64,000 nt of DNA. It comes from Chiloscyllium plagiosum (lineage: Eukaryota). Below the pieces are notes generated by a model. That model ran no database searches. It was not told the DNA's origin and saw only the letters and a list, made by a program, of their open reading frames with translations. Of this stretch, positions 10,632 through 35,459 are shown one piece after another; the stretch's first letter is position 1; every line of letters begins with the position of its first letter. Location: assembly GCF_004010195.1 (NCBI RefSeq), contig NC_057719.1, positions 34,569,692 through 34,633,691 on the forward strand, in the 5' to 3' direction. The position numbers and the translations under genes are program-made.

Positions 10632-10866
10632 TGAATTATTGTAACATGGTCAGCCAGGTGAACCTCATAGAATATGAGTTCCCTGATTGGGGTTGTTAAT
10701 CTTGTTGAACGAGGGAGTCTTGGCTAACAGATATAAACAAGAGTGTCAGAGGTTCTGTTCACTCTGACAGCTGGCTCTGAGGGAGCTGGATCAGCGTCAA
10801 GGACTCTTCACATGTAGATAAAGGGTAACTTGGTGACAGGTTACCAGCTTCACAGGAGTTATTGCA
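10632..10866 (+). mobile_element. Solo LTR, uninterrupted copy
   Basis: Collinear with the LTR at 33194-34436 once its inserts are removed; TATA-like GATATAAA, polyA-signal-like GATAAA, ends TTATTGCA. No clear TSD. Confidence 0.7.
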
Positions 10867-15548: not shown

Positions 15549-16892
15549 TTAGATCAGAGAGGTGCTGGAAAAGCACAGCAGGTCAGGCAGCATTCGAGGA
15601 GCAGGAAAATCGACGTTTCGGGCAAAGGTTGGAACTGGGGTAAGGTGGGGGGAAGGGAAATGAGGAAACTGGTGAAGTCCACATTGATGCCCTGGGGTTG
15701 AAGTTTTCCGAGACAGAAGATGAGGCGTTCTTCCTCCAGGCATCGGGTGGTGAGGGAGCGGCGGTGGAGGAGTCCAGGACCTGCATGTCCTCGGCAGAGT
15801 GGGAGGGGGAGTTGAAATGTTGAGCCACGGGGCGGTGGGGTTGATTAGTGTGGGTCCGGAGATGTTCCCTGAAGCGCTCTGCGAGGAGGCGTCCAGTCTC
15901 CCCAATGTAGAGGAGACCGCATCGGGAGCAACGGATACAATAAATGATATTGGTGGATGTGCAGGTGAAACTTTGACGGATGTGGAAGGCTCCTTTGGGG
16001 CCTTGGATGGAGATGAGGGAGGAGGTGTGGGCGCAGGATTTGCAATTCCTGCAGTGGCAGGGGAGGGTGCCAGGACAGGAGGGTGGGTTGTTGGGAGCGT
16101 GGACCTGACCAGGTAGTCACGGAGGGAACGGTCTTTGTGGAAAGTGGAAAGGGGTGGGGAGGGAAATATATTCCTGGTGGTGGGGTCCATTGGAGGTGGC
16201 GGAAATGATATGGTTAATGCGAAGGTTAGTAGGGTGGAAGGTGAGGACTGGGGGGTTCTGTCCTTGTTACGATTGGAGGGATGGGGTTTGAGGGCAGAGG
16301 TGCAGGATGTGGATGAGATGCATTGGAGGGCATCTTCAACCAAGTGGGAAGGGAAATTGCAATCTCTTAATAAGGAGGCCATCTGGTGTTCTATGGTGGA
16401 ACTGGTCCTCCTGGGAGCAGATACGGTGGATGCAGAGGAATTGGGAATACGGGATGGCATTTTTGCAGGAGGTAGGGTGGGAAGAGGTGTAATCCAGGTA
16501 GCTGTGGGAGTCGGTGGGTTTGTAAAAAATGTCAGTGTCAAGTCTGTCATCATTAATTGAGATGGAGAAGTCCAGGAAGGGGAGGGAGGTGTCAGAGCTG
16601 GTCCAGGTGAATTTAAGGTCGGCGTGGAATGTGTTGGTGAAGTTGATGAACTGCTCAACCTCCTCGCGGGAGCACGAGGTGGCGCCAATGCAGTCATCAA
16701 TGTAGCGGAGGAAGAAGTGGGGAGCGGTGCCGGTGTAACTATGGAAGATGGACTGTTCTACATAGCCGACAAAGAAACAGGCATAGCTGGGGCCCATACG
16801 GGTGCCCATGGCTACCCCTTTGATCTGGAGGAAGTGGGAGGATTCGAAGGAGAAATTGTTAAGGGTGAGGACCAGTTCAGCCAAACGAATGA
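15549..16892 (-). mobile_element. Penelope-like element (Neptune type), 5'-truncated, frameshifted RT + GIY-YIG endonuclease
   Basis: ORF 16336-16884 has QIKGVAMGTRMGPSYA...FLRYIDD (PLE RT). Minus strand ~15865-15995 reads FTCTSTNIIYCIRCSRCGLLYIGETGRLLAERFREH (GIY-YIG). Terminal repeat with GCCCGAAACGTCG at ~15610-15625. Confidence 0.95.
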
Positions 16893-17450
16893 GTGTGTTT
16901 GTTCATTCCAACAGCATGGGAGGGTCTTCAGGAGAGCACTTACTAGTATCCTGCTGAAGTCTGTTCATTATTTGCTCATTGATGGCTGAAAGCTAACCCC
17001 CTAGGCTATGCTTGAAAGTGTTTTGCTCTTCATTCTGGAATTTGGGTTTGTCTTGTGAGTGATGCTGATCCATTGGCAACATGGATTAGCAATGATCCAC
17101 TGGACTGGGACCTGTAGAGATTTCAGAGCACTATAGAATCCCTTCATGTCTTTGTGTTTCACGTGTAGCAGAAATTTATCTGCTTTATGATGAAGTTAAG
17201 TAACTTGTATCTCCCTGAGCTTGCAGTTGACAGTCCTGCAATACTTTCAGTAAACATCCTGCTTAAAAACTGTTTCAGAGTTACAAAATGGCAGCGACCC
17301 AGCAAGTCTGAGTCTGTAGTACTCTGCCCAAGACTCAGGCAAAGTGGGGTACCCGCCTCTACCACACCCTCTAAACCATTTAAAATAACTCTTACCCAGC
17401 ATGTTTAGTCATTTTGCACTAAACTTGAACAGTTTGATGCTGTGCTTAAA

Positions 17451-18308: not shown

Positions 18309-19013
18309 ACTGTAAGAATTTAAACCGTATAGCTCATGATGCTATTTTGCAACCCCTCTTCCCCGGTTTACTTTTACTTTTTCTTTCACTTTTCATCCCC
18401 TTTATTGTTTAATATCATCTCCGGTGGGGCAGGGAGGGGGCTTATTTGTTATCCACTATGTGATTTTCTTTTTTTTTTACAGGCCGGGCGGATTAGTTGA
18501 TTCGGGGGGGGAAGGGGGGGGTGGGGGCGTCTGCTCTGTCCTACCTCAATTTTTTTTCGAGTGGGGTTTTTTTTCTTCTGTTATTATACTTAGTTATCTA
18601 TTACCAGCTGGGATTGTAACTTTATAGTTTTATATCTTTATACTTTGTATTATCTTTACTAAACGTATCCAAGTGTTGGCATGAGCGGGGGGCTGGGGCA
18701 TTCACTTTTAACTTTGGTTCTATAGGACACTTGAATTTATTTACTCTATTATGTGGTGCCTGGGTCGAGGACAGGGCGCTGGTTGGGAGAGGATAAGGTG
18801 GGTTTACTGACACATAGTGATGCCCCTGGGAACAAGAGGGAAAATCTCCTTTTAAATGTGTTTTGTATTTTTCTTATTTAGAAATAGTTTTTAACTATAT
18901 TGGCGTTAATGTATTAAAGAATTTCTACTTTTGTGAATTTTCTACGGTCTGTGCTCGTGGTGTTTTGGGTATGGTTCTCCTTCCCGGGGACTCTCGGACT
19001 TGCCTGGACGTTC

Positions 19014-22000
19014 ATGGTTCGTCATTCAATTAGGTGGTGCACCTGGAACGTCAAGGGGAGTAATTCACCAGTCAAAAGAAAGAAAATACTATCAAACCTC
19101 AAAAAAGAAAGGGTAGATATAGCTCTCTTACAGGAGACACACCTACTGGATAAAGAGCACTTAAAATTACAACAAGGAGGATTCGATCAGGCCTTCTTTT
19201 CATCTTTTAGTTCAAAAAGTAAGGGAGTAGTCATTCTCATTCGGAAGAACCTCCCTTTCAAAATCTTAAGTCAAATAAAAGATGAATCTGAACAGTATAT
19301 ACTGATCAAAGCCCTCATAAATGGACAGGAGTATGGAATTTTGAATCTTTATTGTCCCCCGGCACACCCCTTCAAATTTATAATGAAAGGATTCTCCAAA
19401 CTGATGGCTTTTGGGGCTCATCACACAATTATAGGAGGAGATTTTAATTTTACTATGGACCCAGAGATAGACAGGATACCCAGGAGTACTGCAGGTATAT
19501 CTCTTAGATCCAGACAATTGGCAGATTTGAACAAGGAGCTAGGGTTAGTAGATGTGTGGAGGTGCCTTCATCCGCAGGACAGAGACTTTACTTTCTACTC
19601 TAACCCACATAAGTGTCACACTAGAATTGATATGTTTTTTGCTCCCTTGACCTTTTTGAACTCCATATTATCCTGCAAAATAGGTAATATAATAATTTCT
19701 GATCATGCTGCAATATATATGGAAGTTAAGACTAGGGATGATGAGACAAGCTCCCGACATTGACATATGGATTTCTTCTTAATGAAGGATAGCAAATTCA
19801 TTAAATATTTCTCTCAAGAATTCCAAACCTTTTTTGGAAATTAACTCAGGTATGGCCAGTAACCCGTCAGTGATGTGGGAGACCATTAAGGCTTATGCAC
19901 GAGGTCTCATTATTTCAACACCAGAAAAAACAAAAGGGAGAACAACAGTGTCTACTCAAGGCTTGCTTGAAGGCAGCTGAGATAGCCTATGTTGATAGGC
20001 CCTCTATTGCTAAGTTATAAAAGGATTACAGCCCTTAGGACAGCCTTGAGTACCACACTTACCCAAACAGCAAAGAGGGAAATATTATTTGCAAAGCAAA
20101 GACTATATGAATACGGCGATAAGCCTGGTAGATACCTAGCATATCTCACAAGGAGACAAAAGGCCCCTCAAGCTATCACGTCCATTAGGGAAAGTGCTGG
20201 TACTTTGACTCATGACTGCACAAGGATTAATACAGCCTTCAGAAAGTTTTATTCTGATCTGTATAAATCACAGGATTGTGAAGACAGAGCTAAGAAGATG
20301 GAGTCCTTTTATAAAAGCCTGGCCTTTCCGGACTTAACCCCGGAACAGGTGTCGTTCCTGAATGCTCCCCTGACAACCCAGGAAGTACTGCCTGAAGCAA
20401 TCAGGCAGCTTCAGAGCGGTAAAAAACCTGGCCCAGATGGATTCCAGGCTGAATTCTACAAAGGGTTTATAGGGATACTGGCTGGCCCACTTATAGACAT
20501 GTACAATTAGTCAGGGCTGCCTATCGCCTTTGATGAGAGAAGCAAATATTTCTCTCATTTTTAAAAAAGGGAAGGCCCCAGAAGATTGCACAACATACAG
20601 GACAATATCTTTGCTAAATGTAGATTTTAAAATTCTTTCTAAAACATTAGCATTAAGGCTGGAGAGGGTTTTACCATACATCATAAAAGAGGACCAGATG
20701 GGGTTTATCAAGGGGCATAGATCATCTAATAATATTAGAATGGTTTTAAATGTGATTCAAGTCTGTCATCAGGAAAGAATACCAGGAATAGTAGTCTCTT
20801 TAGGTGCGGAGAAGGCATTCGATCGGGTTGAATGGTCATATTTGTTTTACACACTGGAAAATTTTGGAATTGGAGAGTTATTCGCCAAATGGGTCTCAAT
20901 ATTGTACAATGACACCAAAGCAGCCATGATTACTAATGGTTTAGGCTCAGATAGCTTCAGTGTGGGTAGGGCTGTCGTCAGGGATGTCCTCTCTCACTTA
21001 TTATTCATACTAATAATTGAACCATTAGCAGAAGCTATACAGGCCGATTCTAATATAATAGCTCCGAGGGTTGGTTCAGGTAAACATAAAATTACCCTTT
21101 ATGCAGATGATGTTCTCCTTTTTCTTAGTAATCCTTTGATATCTGTGCCCCACTTGATCCAAGTAATCAATTTATTCAGTGCGTTCTCAGGTTACAAAAT
21201 CAATTTCACAAAATCGGAGGCCATGCCGATGGGTGGCTTCACTAGTATGTCCAATTTATTGGACGGGTCTTGCTTTCCCCTTCGGTGGTCTCTGGAGGGT
21301 TTTTTATATTTGGGTATTTTTATCACCCCAGTATTTGATCAGCTGTACAAAGCCAATTTTGTGCACCTATTAGAGAGGATAAGGCAGGACCTTCAACGAT
21401 GGGGGGAATCTCCCGATATCTTGGTAAGGCAGAATAGCTCTAATTAAAATGACTATTTTGCCTCGCCTCCTATACCCTATGAGAATGCTCCCTGTGATGT
21501 TGCCAAGGCTGGCATTGCGTAAACTATACGGTTGGCTTGGTTCTTTCATTTGGAATCATAGGCAGCCCCTTATTAAATTAAAGAAGCTGCAGCTTCCACA
21601 AGCAAGGGGAGGACTGGATTTTCCAGACTTTAGGAAGTACCAGCTGAGTTCTCTATTAAGCTACGTAGCCGACTGGGTCTCATGTGACCCGCAATCAATC
21701 CGGCTGGACATTGTGGCTTCTCAAGTAAAGTGTTCCCTAATTAATCTCTTATTTTTAGATAAGGTGAAAGTTATTATGGACCATTGTAAAAACCCCATTG
21801 TATTAAATACAATTAAAGCCAGGAAGATAATGTGGCAAGACGAGGGTAATTCACAAAAAAACCTCTCCTCATACTCTTATAGTGGAAGCATGGGATTTTC
21901 AACCGGGGCACTCAGACGCTACATTTAAAACTTGAAGGTCCTGGGGTATTTCTTGCTTAGGGGATCTGTTTGATGGGGTGGTTATGATGTCTTTTGGACA

Positions 22001-22783
22001 GCTGCACCAGAAATTTGGAGATCTTTTTTGATATTTCCAAACTCAAGATTATATACGGAAGAAGACCACATTATTGGATAGCTCTTATAAATCGGATAGG
22101 GAAAGAAGAGTGTTATGACCAATGGGTCCACCCTCAGTCAGCACTCTTTATCACTCATTACAGAACGAAGTATCGAAAGACATGGCACAATTGTTTAAAA
22201 CATGGAATCAGGAATTGGGGTTGGAAATCCCTTCAGAAATGTGGGACAACATCTGGGAAAATGCCAGAAAAATCTTCATTTGTAATAGAACCCAAGCTAT
22301 TCAATTAAAGGTACTCCATAGGACTCATATAGCACTGGAACGACTGGCAAAATTTAGGGCAGGAACATCTCCTATGTGTCCTAAGTGTAAAATAGAAGTG
22401 GGCACTCTCACACACTGCTTATGGACATGTCATAAGATCCACAAGTACTGGATCAGAGTAGCAAATGCGCTGACAGAAATCTCGGGAGCAGAAATTAGAG
22501 TAGATCCAGTATCTCTTCTCCTGGGCTTTTTGAACCTGCCCTCTCTGGATGTTGGTGGGAGGAAGTTATTTTCCATTCTCTCCCTTTGTGCAAGGCAAAA
22601 TATCTTGGTAAATTGGGTAGCTGAGGGCCCTCCAGGACTTTCAAATTGGCACAGGTTAAATCCCTTGACTTCCTTACAAATATGGTGCACCAAAAAACTG
22701 AATTATTCTATAAAATATAGCAGCCCTTCCTGAACTATATAAATACAGATATTTTGGCCATATTGTCAAGGGCTTTTATCTAG
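19014..22783 (+). pseudogene. L1 ORF2p (APE endonuclease, RT, CCHC), multiple stops and frameshifts
   Basis: TWNVKG, LLQETH, GGDFN, TRIDMFF, ISDHA (APE); KKPGPDGF, AEKAFDRVEW, LYADDVLL (RT); CPKCKIEVGTLTHCLWTC (zinc knuckle). Confidence 0.95.
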
Positions 22784-25051: not shown

Positions 25052-25370
25052 TTAGATTAGATTAGATTACATTACAGTGTGGAAACAGGCTCTTCGGCCC
25101 AACAAGTCTACACCGACCCGCCGAAGCGAAACCCACCCATACCCCTACATTTACCCCTTACCTAACACTACGGGCAATTTAGCATGGCCAATTCACCTGA
25201 CCCTGCACATCTTTGGACTGTGGGAGGAAACCGGAGCGCCCGGAGGAAACCCACGCAGACACGGGGAGAACGTGCAAACTCCACACAGTCAGTCGCCTGA
25301 GGCAGGAATTGAACCCAGGTCTCAGGCGCTGTGAGGCAGCAGTGCTAACCACTGGGCCACCGTGCCGCCC
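25052..25370 (-). mobile_element. HE1 SINE, full-length and young-looking
   Basis: Minus strand GGGCGGCACGGTGGCCCAGTGGTTAGC (box A), GGTTCAATTCC (box B), V-domain, (AATCT)n tail; CpGs retained. Confidence 0.95.
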
Positions 25371-25389
25371 ACAAATTATGTGTTTTAGA

Positions 25390-32755: not shown

Positions 32756-33310
32756 GTACATAACTAGAGCCGGAATTTGATAAGTTTATGAGTTTTGAAA
32801 AAGTACTACTTTTTAAAAATTTTGTAATTTTATGAGTTCACAGTTAGAAGGTTACAATACATTCCCAGGATGGTTCCTGAAAAATTTAATATTGCTGTAT
32901 CTGGAACAATGGAAGTAAAAAACCATGTCAGTTTTGTCCCAAACAGCATCCTAAAGAGCTGTAGAAATTTACTCCTTAAAAGTTAGTAGCTGAATTATTG
33001 CAGGAAACGTGGCAACTAAGCTGCTGTAATTCTCAGTGAGTTTATGACCAGCCATTCCAGTTAGCATTTTCAGTTGTAGAAAAAAACATGAACCCAGGAA
33101 TAAAGAATGCCTGGGTTAACTCCTCACTCTTCTAATTAAATTATACCACAGACTTTTTTTTTAACATCCTTCTTAAAAGACATCTGGGGACTCTGTGGTG
33201 ATTGTAATGAGGTCAGCCAGGTAGACTTCATAGAATATGCGATCCCTGATTGGAGCTGTTAATCTCGTCCAATCAGGGAGCCCTGACTGGCAGATAAAAA
33301 CAGGAATGCT

Positions 33311-33627
33311 TTCAGGGAGAGGTGGGTGCCGCAGGGAATGGAGTGCATCATTTCTCCCTCCAACTCTATTTTGATTTAGTCCCTACCCTCCCCCTCACTG
33401 TTTTGATCACACAGCACTGCCCTTTGATGTGAAGGGCAGTGTTTGTCACTGGCCACCCGGGTGTTTTCCTATCTTCCTGGTGGTGGCATTTGAATAAAGA
33501 TTCGTGCACTTTGTGTCCTTCACTGTGTCTCACACCTGCACACACACACACCATGGGTGCTGGGGAAAAAATAAGCACTACCGCACTTAGGTGGTAGTGT
33601 GGGGGTTAAAAACAAAGAAAAAAAAAG
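33311..33627 (+). mobile_element. Tx1-like LINE 3' end, copy 1
   Basis: Encodes FRERWVPQGMECIISPSNSILI* (33311-33379), which resembles a Tx1-clade ORF2 C-terminus; 3'UTR, A-rich tail; 17-bp TSD AAAAACAGGAATGCTTT at 33296-33312 and 33628-33644. Confidence 0.75.
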
Positions 33628-33635
33628 AAAAACAG

Positions 33636-33921
33636 GAATGCTTTATTCATCCCCCCGACTCTATTTTGATTTAATCCCTGTCCTCCCCTCCACCTTTTGA
33701 TGACTCAACATTGCCCTGTGTTGAGAAGGGCACTACTTGTCACTGGCCACTCGAGTGTTTCCTTTCTTCCTGATGATGGTGGAATATAAGTAAAGATTTA
33801 TACACGTGTTTTTCACTGTGTCCGACACCTGCACACATGACAAGGGTGCTAGGGAAAAATAAGCACTACCGTTGTCAGGTGCAAGTGTGGGGAATAAAGA
33901 AAAAAAGAAAAATAACCGAAC
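33636..33921 (+). mobile_element. Tx1-like LINE 3' end, copy 2
   Basis: ECFIHPPDSILI*, homologous 3'UTR, A-rich tail followed by AAACAGGAGTGTCAG of the LTR. Confidence 0.75.
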
Positions 33922-34034
33922 AAACAGGAGTGTCAGAGGTTCTGTTCACTCTGAGAGCTGGCTTTGAGAGAGCTGAATCTGTGTGTGAAGAACTCTCCAC
34001 TTTTCTGTGTTAAAGAGAAGAGACTGAAAAAAAA

Positions 34035-34304
34035 GGAATGCTTTATTTCCCCCTCTCCCCAACTCTGTTTTGATTTAATCCTTGCCCTCCCCTTCACTTT
34101 TTGATGACTCAGTATCGCCCTGTGCTGAGAAGGGCACTGCTTGTCACTGGCCACTTGAGTGTTTACTTTCTTCCTGATCGTGGAATACGAGTAAAGATTT
34201 CTGCACTCTTTCTTCACTGTGTCCGACACTTTCACACACACAACATGGTTGCTGGGGAAAAATAAAGTAAAAACAAAGAAGAAAAAGGAAAAAAAAAGAA
34301 GAAA
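34035..34304 (+). mobile_element. Tx1-like LINE 3' end, copy 3
   Basis: ECFISP...SVLI* with an indel, homologous 3'UTR, A-rich tail followed by AAACAGTAGTGTCAG. Confidence 0.75.
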
Positions 34305-35459
34305 AAACAGTAGTGTCAGATATCCTGTTCACTCTGAAAGCTGGCTCTGAGGGAGCTGGATCAGTGTCAAGGACTTTCCATATATAAATAAAGAGTGGCT
34401 TGGTGACAGGATATTGGCCTCTGTGGCATTATTTCAGACTCAGGTTAATGTCTTATCGGAAAACCATTCTTCGGACAATGTAACATCACCAGTCTGAACC
34501 TTTGCAACCTAGTCTATTTAAGGGATAAGGAGGACGCTTGGAGCGATTGAAGATGGATGGTCATGGAGCACATAATGACCTTTCGTCTCTTTATTGTTCC
34601 ATACCGTCCTTTTTATTTCTTAAAAGCTTCCCAGCTTCAAATCAAGTTAAGTATTCGGATAAGCTGATAAACTCCAATTTATTCTTTGTAGGAACATGAT
34701 GGATGCTGAGTTGGCAATCCTCCATTTGTTTGAAAATGACAAATGTTATGGTGAATAAAATCTGGATTCTAATCCCTCTTTTAAAAATGAATACAAAGAA
34801 GCCCTGGCAAATTCCTATGTTAAGTGCTTAAAAATCTAATTTCTGTATCCACAGAGCTAGATAAAGGAGTGTGATTCAGGTCACTCTGCACAAAAAGTGA
34901 AGCAGCAACTAATTACATAATTTTTATCTGAATTAATCAGAGAGCAGCAGCAGCAGCAGTGAGTCTCCAAGTTTCAAAAACCATAACTTTTGTGTGGAAT
35001 ATCAACACCAAAATCTTTTAAACATTGTTCAATGAAGCAATATGTTTTCTGTCACAATTCATGAAGAATTTATACTCCTTGGAAATAATGTGATGTGCTG
35101 CTTAGCCGTCGCTGCAATCTGTCATGTCTATACATTTTAATACTGCTCACTTTCGATAATAAGTAGCGGAATAAACAAAACTCTGCTGAACTGGGTTACG
35201 AGGTTCAGACCAAGTATAGAGCTGTTGCCAGAGCAAACATTTATGTTTCAGAAAGCTTCATCAAAAAGATATGGTTTGTTTCTGGATGGTCCATTTGTTA
35301 GTAACATTCCATTTGTCTTGAATGAAGAAATAATGGGCTGAAACATACTTTTTATTTTCGTCAACACTGAGTTGCGTTAGATTTTCTGGAAAGGTTTGCA
35401 AAGTGAGGTGTCTCTTACCAAATCCACGTCATTAACTGTCTGCCCTATATCACGCTTCA

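Follow-up and report, generated by a model that had tools for sequence, protein, structure and literature searches.

A Tx1L-lineage LINE of Chiloscyllium plagiosum prefers one position in a Gypsy-type LTR, and its site choice appears to depend on an upstream CCAAT box

The window, a 64-kb stretch of Chiloscyllium plagiosum DNA, contains a solo LTR (33194-34436) that is split by three 3' pieces of one LINE family (Table 1). The LTR is flanked by GACTC on either side, and each A-rich tail of the LINE leads into AAACAG(G/T)A(G/A)TG, as described in an earlier note made from the sequence of this locus. The left LTR half stops right past a TATA-like word and CAGG. Copy 1 consists of the final ORF2 codons with the stop codon (33377-33379), the 3' UTR, a terminal hairpin motif and an A-rich tail. 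An uninterrupted LTR elsewhere in the window matches both halves of the split LTR, and no further copies of the LINE were found within the 64 kb beyond this locus; both points had been recognized previously. The segment following copy 2 is more than plain LTR, as it runs on into a LINE 5' head. The first 75 nt of this head are LTR-like and carry a GT expansion, the sequence thereafter is LINE-specific, and as a whole the head is unlike the right half of its own LTR and belongs to an older LINE subfamily.

Table 1. Features of the split LTR and of the empty LTR; positions are those of the window.
Feature	Position	Strand	Basis or remark
LTR target duplication GACTC, 5 bp	left 33189..33193, right 34437-34441	+	sequence
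Gypsy-type solo LTR, left half, subfamily A	33194..33308	+	78.7% to empty LTR 10638-10745
Proximal CCAAT box, intact, 41-44 nt ahead of LINE junction	33269..33273	+	
Copy 1 target duplication, 17 bp	33296..33312, partner 33628-33644	+	
Copy 1, young-subfamily Tx1 3' end	33311..33627 (3' piece 33311-33608)	+	97.2% to nearest genome copies
Copy 2, Tx1 3' end of the old subfamily; A-rich tail and terminal hairpin motif present	33635..33921 (3' piece 33635-33893)	+	84.9% to nearest copies
5' head of older full-length LINE and A-run	33922..34034 (head to 34026)	+	matching head at 5 other loci
Copy 3, old Tx1 3' end without terminal hairpin	34035..34302 (3' piece 34032-34265)	+	85.3% to nearest copies
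LTR right half with AATAAA (34387-34392) and terminal CA	34303..34436	+	85% to empty LTR 10735-10843
Empty LTR of the same family	10632..10866	+	proximal CCAAT mutated (about 10706-10710)

Three further repeats lie in the window. Long open frames are located at 18918-22730 (+), which we take to be an L1-type ORF2, and at 15552-16902 (-), presumably a Penelope-like reverse transcriptase element. A repeat of about 315 bp at 25057-25372, which served as a control, has copies that are 97-99% identical genome-wide and was therefore recently active.

The genome copies of the LINE, when walked upstream, extend into ORF2 and then to full-length elements of about 7 kb, and the idea of a short SINE whose 5' end is fixed was accordingly rejected. 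While the window holds 3' ends only, ORF2 of the genome copies comprises an AP endonuclease, a reverse transcriptase (RT) and a C-terminal zinc motif, and a separate ORF1 is present; among the Pfam domains, RVT_1 scored above the cut-off, and PF03372 and zf-RVT scored below it on broken pieces. The best-named homologue is the Tx1L ORF2 of Xenopus laevis, YTX2_XENLA, with 61% identity over 92% of a 319-aa piece. Compared with Tx1L, the RT region is 60-62% and the endonuclease region 40-42% identical, and ORF1 is 28-35% identical to the proteins it matched. In an IQ-TREE analysis of 26 rows, which all came from the homologue list and included no L1 outgroup, the element grouped with Tx1L, a sturgeon, a turtle and one unnamed protein at 100/100, which agrees with the Tx1 clade membership first proposed. 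The hallmarks of Tx1-type elements were found as well, namely an A-rich tail, variable 5' truncation and target duplications of 12-19 bp (29 off-LTR cases). The genome contains 3,729 exact matches to a 29-mer from the young 3' end and 95 matches to a motif of the older subfamily.

The history of the three copies differs from the initial reading as three independent insertions. In a FastTree tree of 83 of the 238 long fragments, copies 2 and 3 are mutual closest relatives (86.3% identity, support 0.945), and they have nine rare bases in common, at most four of which are shared by any other of 339 fragments; independent insertion of all three copies is therefore unsupported. The 17-bp duplication around copy 1 is present as reported, but it is not just a pair, since a third occurrence of the 17-mer, differing by one mismatch, lies at 34028-34044. 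As it also precedes copy 3, copies 2 and 3 share their LINE start position. The duplication of copy 1 takes in the first bases of copy 2, suggesting that copy 1 arrived later. From these sequence relationships, the locus is likely to comprise two insertions and an old local duplication, with copy 3 being the probable duplicate of copy 2, and the head at 33922-34034 was likely brought in by 3' read-through, that is, by transduction. An old insertion with its read-through head would then have been duplicated locally, the duplicate would later have lost its last part, and the young insertion would finally have been added in front. In organism B, the LTR edges, the copy 2-head junction and the head-copy 3 junction are all present with a flank difference of about 4%, on contigs that are too short to read the presence or absence of copy 1.

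The target LTR is about 240 bp long, has TG...CA ends and shows 5-bp duplications at several solo copies. Paired LTRs lying 2.5-8 kb apart enclose RT and H2C2-integrase remnants, and cross-mapping of loci L098 and L096 placed RVT_1 (weak) upstream of Integrase_H2C2. With RT before integrase, TG...CA ends and a 5-bp duplication, the target is a Gypsy-type LTR retrotransposon. Three LTR subfamilies, A, B and C, were distinguished, with a similar word at the insertion site across them. Intact LTRs were found at a density of 6 in 415 kb, or about one per 69 kb.

The LINE prefers this LTR genome-wide. In the young subfamily, 34 of 60 clusters lay in a split LTR (28 with the left half, 29 with the right half, 23 with both) in a position-ordered sample made up of 60 of the 64 clusters from the first 100 listed matches to the 29-mer, while an antisense LTR was nearby in only 4 of the 60. 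These counts follow a 2.5-kb rule; strict adjacency gave 29/60 with either half, an undercount because of gaps and nested inserts. Old-subfamily arrays split the same LTR family in 27 of the first 40 clusters, the best-match sets gave 20/39, 18/39 and 12/22, and a further set, comprising 30 loci from which 12 already-seen ones were removed, gave 11 of 18 arrays; two loci are common to different sample sets. An unrelated SINE analyzed as a control was found in a split LTR in 0 of 29 cases. Thus, one sequence type makes up 46-68% of the flanks in six samples, where the rule of Kojima (2015) sets more than 20% for a target-specific Tx1 family. The LINE inserts on the LTR's own strand with target duplications of 12-19 bp, and at the left junctions it begins 3-6 nt past the same CAGG in 54 of 76 cases. 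Its truncation points are diverse, falling into 53 distinct bins among 73 placed left junctions in three LTR subfamilies, so that dispersal as a single composite unit is ruled out. Of the 25 split LTRs with callable ends, 8 had a readable 5-bp duplication of the LTR itself. Position-specific insertion into an LTR family and re-use of the site, both anticipated from this single locus, are supported by these samples, and the element is a real, site-preferring family of the Tx1L lineage.

A second, unrelated A-tailed 3' end occupies the same LTR position at L220, L225 and L274; all four exact matches to its motif lie within 1.5 kb of an LTR half, and similar text occurs at L234, L241, L305, L317, L355 and L126, which suggests that another retroposon family uses the same LTR target. 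Identical junctions on different contigs, at L066 and L074, likely represent a segmental duplicate or a transduced unit. At L070, L146 and L352, the LINE inserted just beyond the 5' end of an LTR in opposite orientation. The spacing of 41 nt described below does not explain these three; the insertion at L352 lies 25 and 64 nt from CCAAT words, not 41.

In each of the three LTR subfamilies, a CCAAT box is located 40-42 nt before the insertion junction. Outside the LTR, a sense CCAAT was present 36-43 nt upstream at 8 of 72 junctions compared with a background of 1.1%, this interval having been chosen after inspection of the flanks. Antisense CCAAT at the same distance (1/72) and CCAAT in adjacent windows (1-2/72) were not enriched. 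In a replication with a window of 30-50 nt fixed beforehand, 3 of 29 junctions had the box, all at 40-41 nt (p=0.047), in a small set in which several junctions are array-internal or repeats of earlier loci. Overall, about 11% of the off-LTR junctions have CCAAT at this spacing, with 0/12 in the old subfamily. Four off-LTR insertions, L316, L342, L347 and L452, lie in what is apparently a single old repeat that has two CCAAT boxes, with two of the insertions behind each; since L316/L342 and L347/L452 thus apparently share one repeat family, these sites are not fully independent. The translated flank at L347/L452 presumably resembles a Penelope-type endonuclease end, and a Pfam scan of this repeat gave no match.

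The proximal CCAAT box is also better retained in LTRs that carry the LINE. It was intact in 73 of 95 occupied but in 21 of 45 empty LTRs (p=5e-4, one of 8 words tested, with empty LTRs that were not chosen by their left half). No such contrast was seen for the distal antisense box (53/95 versus 24/45) or for TATAA (42/95 versus 22/45), and occupied subfamily A LTRs are otherwise less conserved than empty ones. Within subfamily A alone the contrast is weak (46/61 versus 9/16), and the box is missing from 22 of the 95 occupied LTRs. The window agrees with this pattern, as the occupied LTR keeps the box and the empty LTR has lost it. At the site itself, off-LTR target duplications were taken from a stricter set, 33 rows minus 4 doubtful ones, as the first automatic calls were often false; the likeness of these 29 duplications (12-19 bp) to the LTR word is no greater than that of A-rich background. 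(T/A)TAAA at the nick, 11-21 nt, was present at 22 of 72 off-LTR junctions versus 4.7%, and TATAA in the same interval at 6 of 72 versus 1.3%. In 30 arrays within the LTR the leading copy was the younger one, in 3 it was the older one, and 32 arrays were tied. This order is expected if only the box-adjacent site is re-used, and is also expected from 3' read-through. Specificity thus seems to be tied to the CCAAT box upstream rather than to the LTR word at the site; the LTR position itself is preferred, as the earlier note had it.

Copies outside the LTR frequently carry a trace of it. Between their own tail and the true target duplication lie a short piece of the LTR target and a second A-tail (for example L314, L063, L003, L107, L025, L123, L394 and L438), and by a loose rule such tags occur in 31 of 77 off-LTR arrays, so that the source copies likely sat in LTRs. 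Since the word after the A-tail is not always the target site, the tally of 3' flanks initially suggested as a test of targeting overcounts. A tRNA-Leu copy at L085:856-939 (-) is placed in an array straight after the target duplication and is likely a passenger of the same machinery, and a truncated LINE copy has a full 5S rRNA copy, at L352:2767-2891 (+), fused straight to its 5' end, forming a chimeric retrocopy.

About one third of 30 full-length 5' ends open with some 75 nt that resemble the LTR right half and include a GT expansion. In 2 of 5 full-length pairs (L405, L411), the first 35-40 nt of the head clearly have private variants in common with the LTR at their own locus, a pattern suggestive of homology-assisted joining that involved a long duplication. 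As the origin of these heads, a long duplication alone was rejected because the GT expansion is found in 0 of 30 empty subfamily A LTRs, and the private variants led to rejection of a purely element-borne head. At most of the other full-length 5' ends, the head is joined to a variable stretch from the 3' region of the element itself, which reads as rebuilding from the upstream neighbour in the array. These pieces include up to 340 nt of the ORF2 end and the 3' UTR and all break at one 3' UTR position; such copies are found among L125-L154 (e.g., L128, L129, L141, L145, L148 and L153). Judging from the LTR-derived heads, full-length copies probably borrow the LTR promoter. RNA runs X21 and X15, examined on one full-length LTR-head junction, revealed no site at which many molecules start, and X22 placed no reads there.

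With moderate confidence, we propose that this LINE is placed in the Gypsy-type LTR by a host protein on the CCAAT box, probably NF-Y, at a fixed distance. CCAAT(C)A/G is the NF-Y site, and it is this motif by itself that predicts NF-Y as the tether. The endonuclease would nick an A-rich word that follows the box at a distance of about 26 nt, and the CCAAT-bound protein would hold the insertion machinery at a set distance, putting the 5' junction about 41 nt past the box. Re-use of the front site beside the box would make arrays grow at the front, and full-length copies would rebuild and use the LTR promoter, with transcripts reading through into downstream sequence. More tentatively, a vertebrate LINE lacking a promoter might be tethered by NF-Y at a fixed 41 bp behind the box and thereby come under a working Pol II promoter with every full-length insertion; the Gypsy LTR would then be not the true target but just the place where the LINE lands most often.

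Alternatively, a protein of the element could read the DNA directly, be it the LTR site word or, via another domain, CCAAT, without a host factor; we consider this unlikely. The endonuclease region is related to that of Tx1L, which is sequence-specific and nicks almost only its own target in vitro according to the parts of PMC1950540 consulted, and both the (T/A)TAAA excess at off-LTR junctions and the similar site word in subfamilies A-C are in keeping with direct reading. However, off-LTR duplications resemble the LTR word only in the A-run, occupied LTRs are better conserved at CCAAT only and not at the site or TATAA, and the regenerated sites at the backs of arrays seem to be seldom used. 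These counterpoints weaken the case for recognition of the site word but leave that for direct recognition of CCAAT untouched. It is likewise unlikely that no tether exists and that LTRs with an intact CCAAT are active, open germ-line promoters in which a loose endonuclease cuts the TATA-like word, the spacing simply mirroring promoter layout. While CCAAT retention in occupied LTRs, the TAAA preference and the TATAA excess fit such a scenario, the spacing of 40-43 nt persists without a TATA word (L115, L175, L322, L452, L141 and L410), CCAAT is enriched on one strand only and the distal antisense box shows no preferential retention. Multiplication of a LINE-bearing LTR as a unit, with arrays made by local duplication and 3' read-through and no targeting at all, is highly improbable: copies 2 and 3 look duplicated, tandem pairs with the same truncation occur at L030 and L064, and the target-like tags and the proportion of readable LTR duplications are compatible with it, but the junction diversity at one LTR position refutes it as a general account, copies 1 (97%) and 2 (85%) fall into separate age classes, and a second unrelated tail is found at the same site. 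Local duplication, which the earlier note had named as speaking against targeting, is thus likely only as the history of copies 2 and 3.

Placement by a CCAAT-bound protein can be compared with known systems, here as far as the consulted parts of the cited papers describe them. Tx1L targets the DNA transposon Tx1D (PMC1950540, PMC4494074); our LINE resembles it in its closely related RT and in inserting into another transposon, but it differs in targeting a Gypsy-type LTR, in having about 30-55% of the sampled arrays outside this target and in that its site is predicted by a distant CCAAT. The closest precedents, missed among those cited earlier (Tx1L and others), are the crocodilian Tx1-8_Crp and Tx1-4_AMi of a Keno-related group, which prefer LTR retrotransposons (PMC4494074). 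They share the LTR preference, while the consulted parts of that paper give neither an LTR position nor a CCAAT rule. The one alligator protein in our tree, whichever family it may represent, falls outside the Tx1L group. The same source describes tandem SINEU-3 insertions (Tx1-Mar/SINEU-3) and dissimilar preferred sites among Tx1 families, and target choice in Tx1 elements is usually attributed to the endonuclease (PMC4494074).

A model for how such a tether may work is TRE5-A of Dictyostelium, an L1-type LINE that inserts at a fixed distance and orientation from promoters and whose ORF1 contacts host transcription factors (PMC5911963). In statistical terms, our LINE likewise keeps a set distance and orientation relative to a factor site, at the LTR sites and at about 11% of the off-LTR sites. 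For TRE5-A, an amoeba element, the interaction has been demonstrated and concerns TFIIIB at Pol III genes, whereas here a Pol II-type CCAAT box is involved in a vertebrate and the factor interaction is predicted from the motif. The LTR-derived head recalls the earwig R2 element of the rDNA, a ribozyme-bearing element in which all copies carry a heritable downstream target piece of 22 bp at their 5' end (PMC3774820); in our LINE, the head includes about 75 nt of LTR, and there is a second head type from its own 3' region. A literature search made mostly outside subscription papers found no shark Tx1 family targeting LTRs and no LINE insertion guided by CCAAT or NF-Y.

Within the Tx1 clade, LTR targeting is a known habit; the new part is the rule of CCAAT spacing, provided that a host tether underlies it. 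If the LTR preference alone holds, this LINE is a well-documented new member with that habit. If a promoter-bound factor does position this relative of Tx1L, it would account for Tx1 families hitting unrelated transposons at dissimilar sequences, would be a Pol II counterpart of TRE5-A/TFIIIB targeting and would suggest a way, amenable to testing, in which LINEs are directed to promoters in vertebrates. The LINE exists in thousands of copies, and the LTRs with and without it constitute a natural mutagenesis series for mapping the rule.
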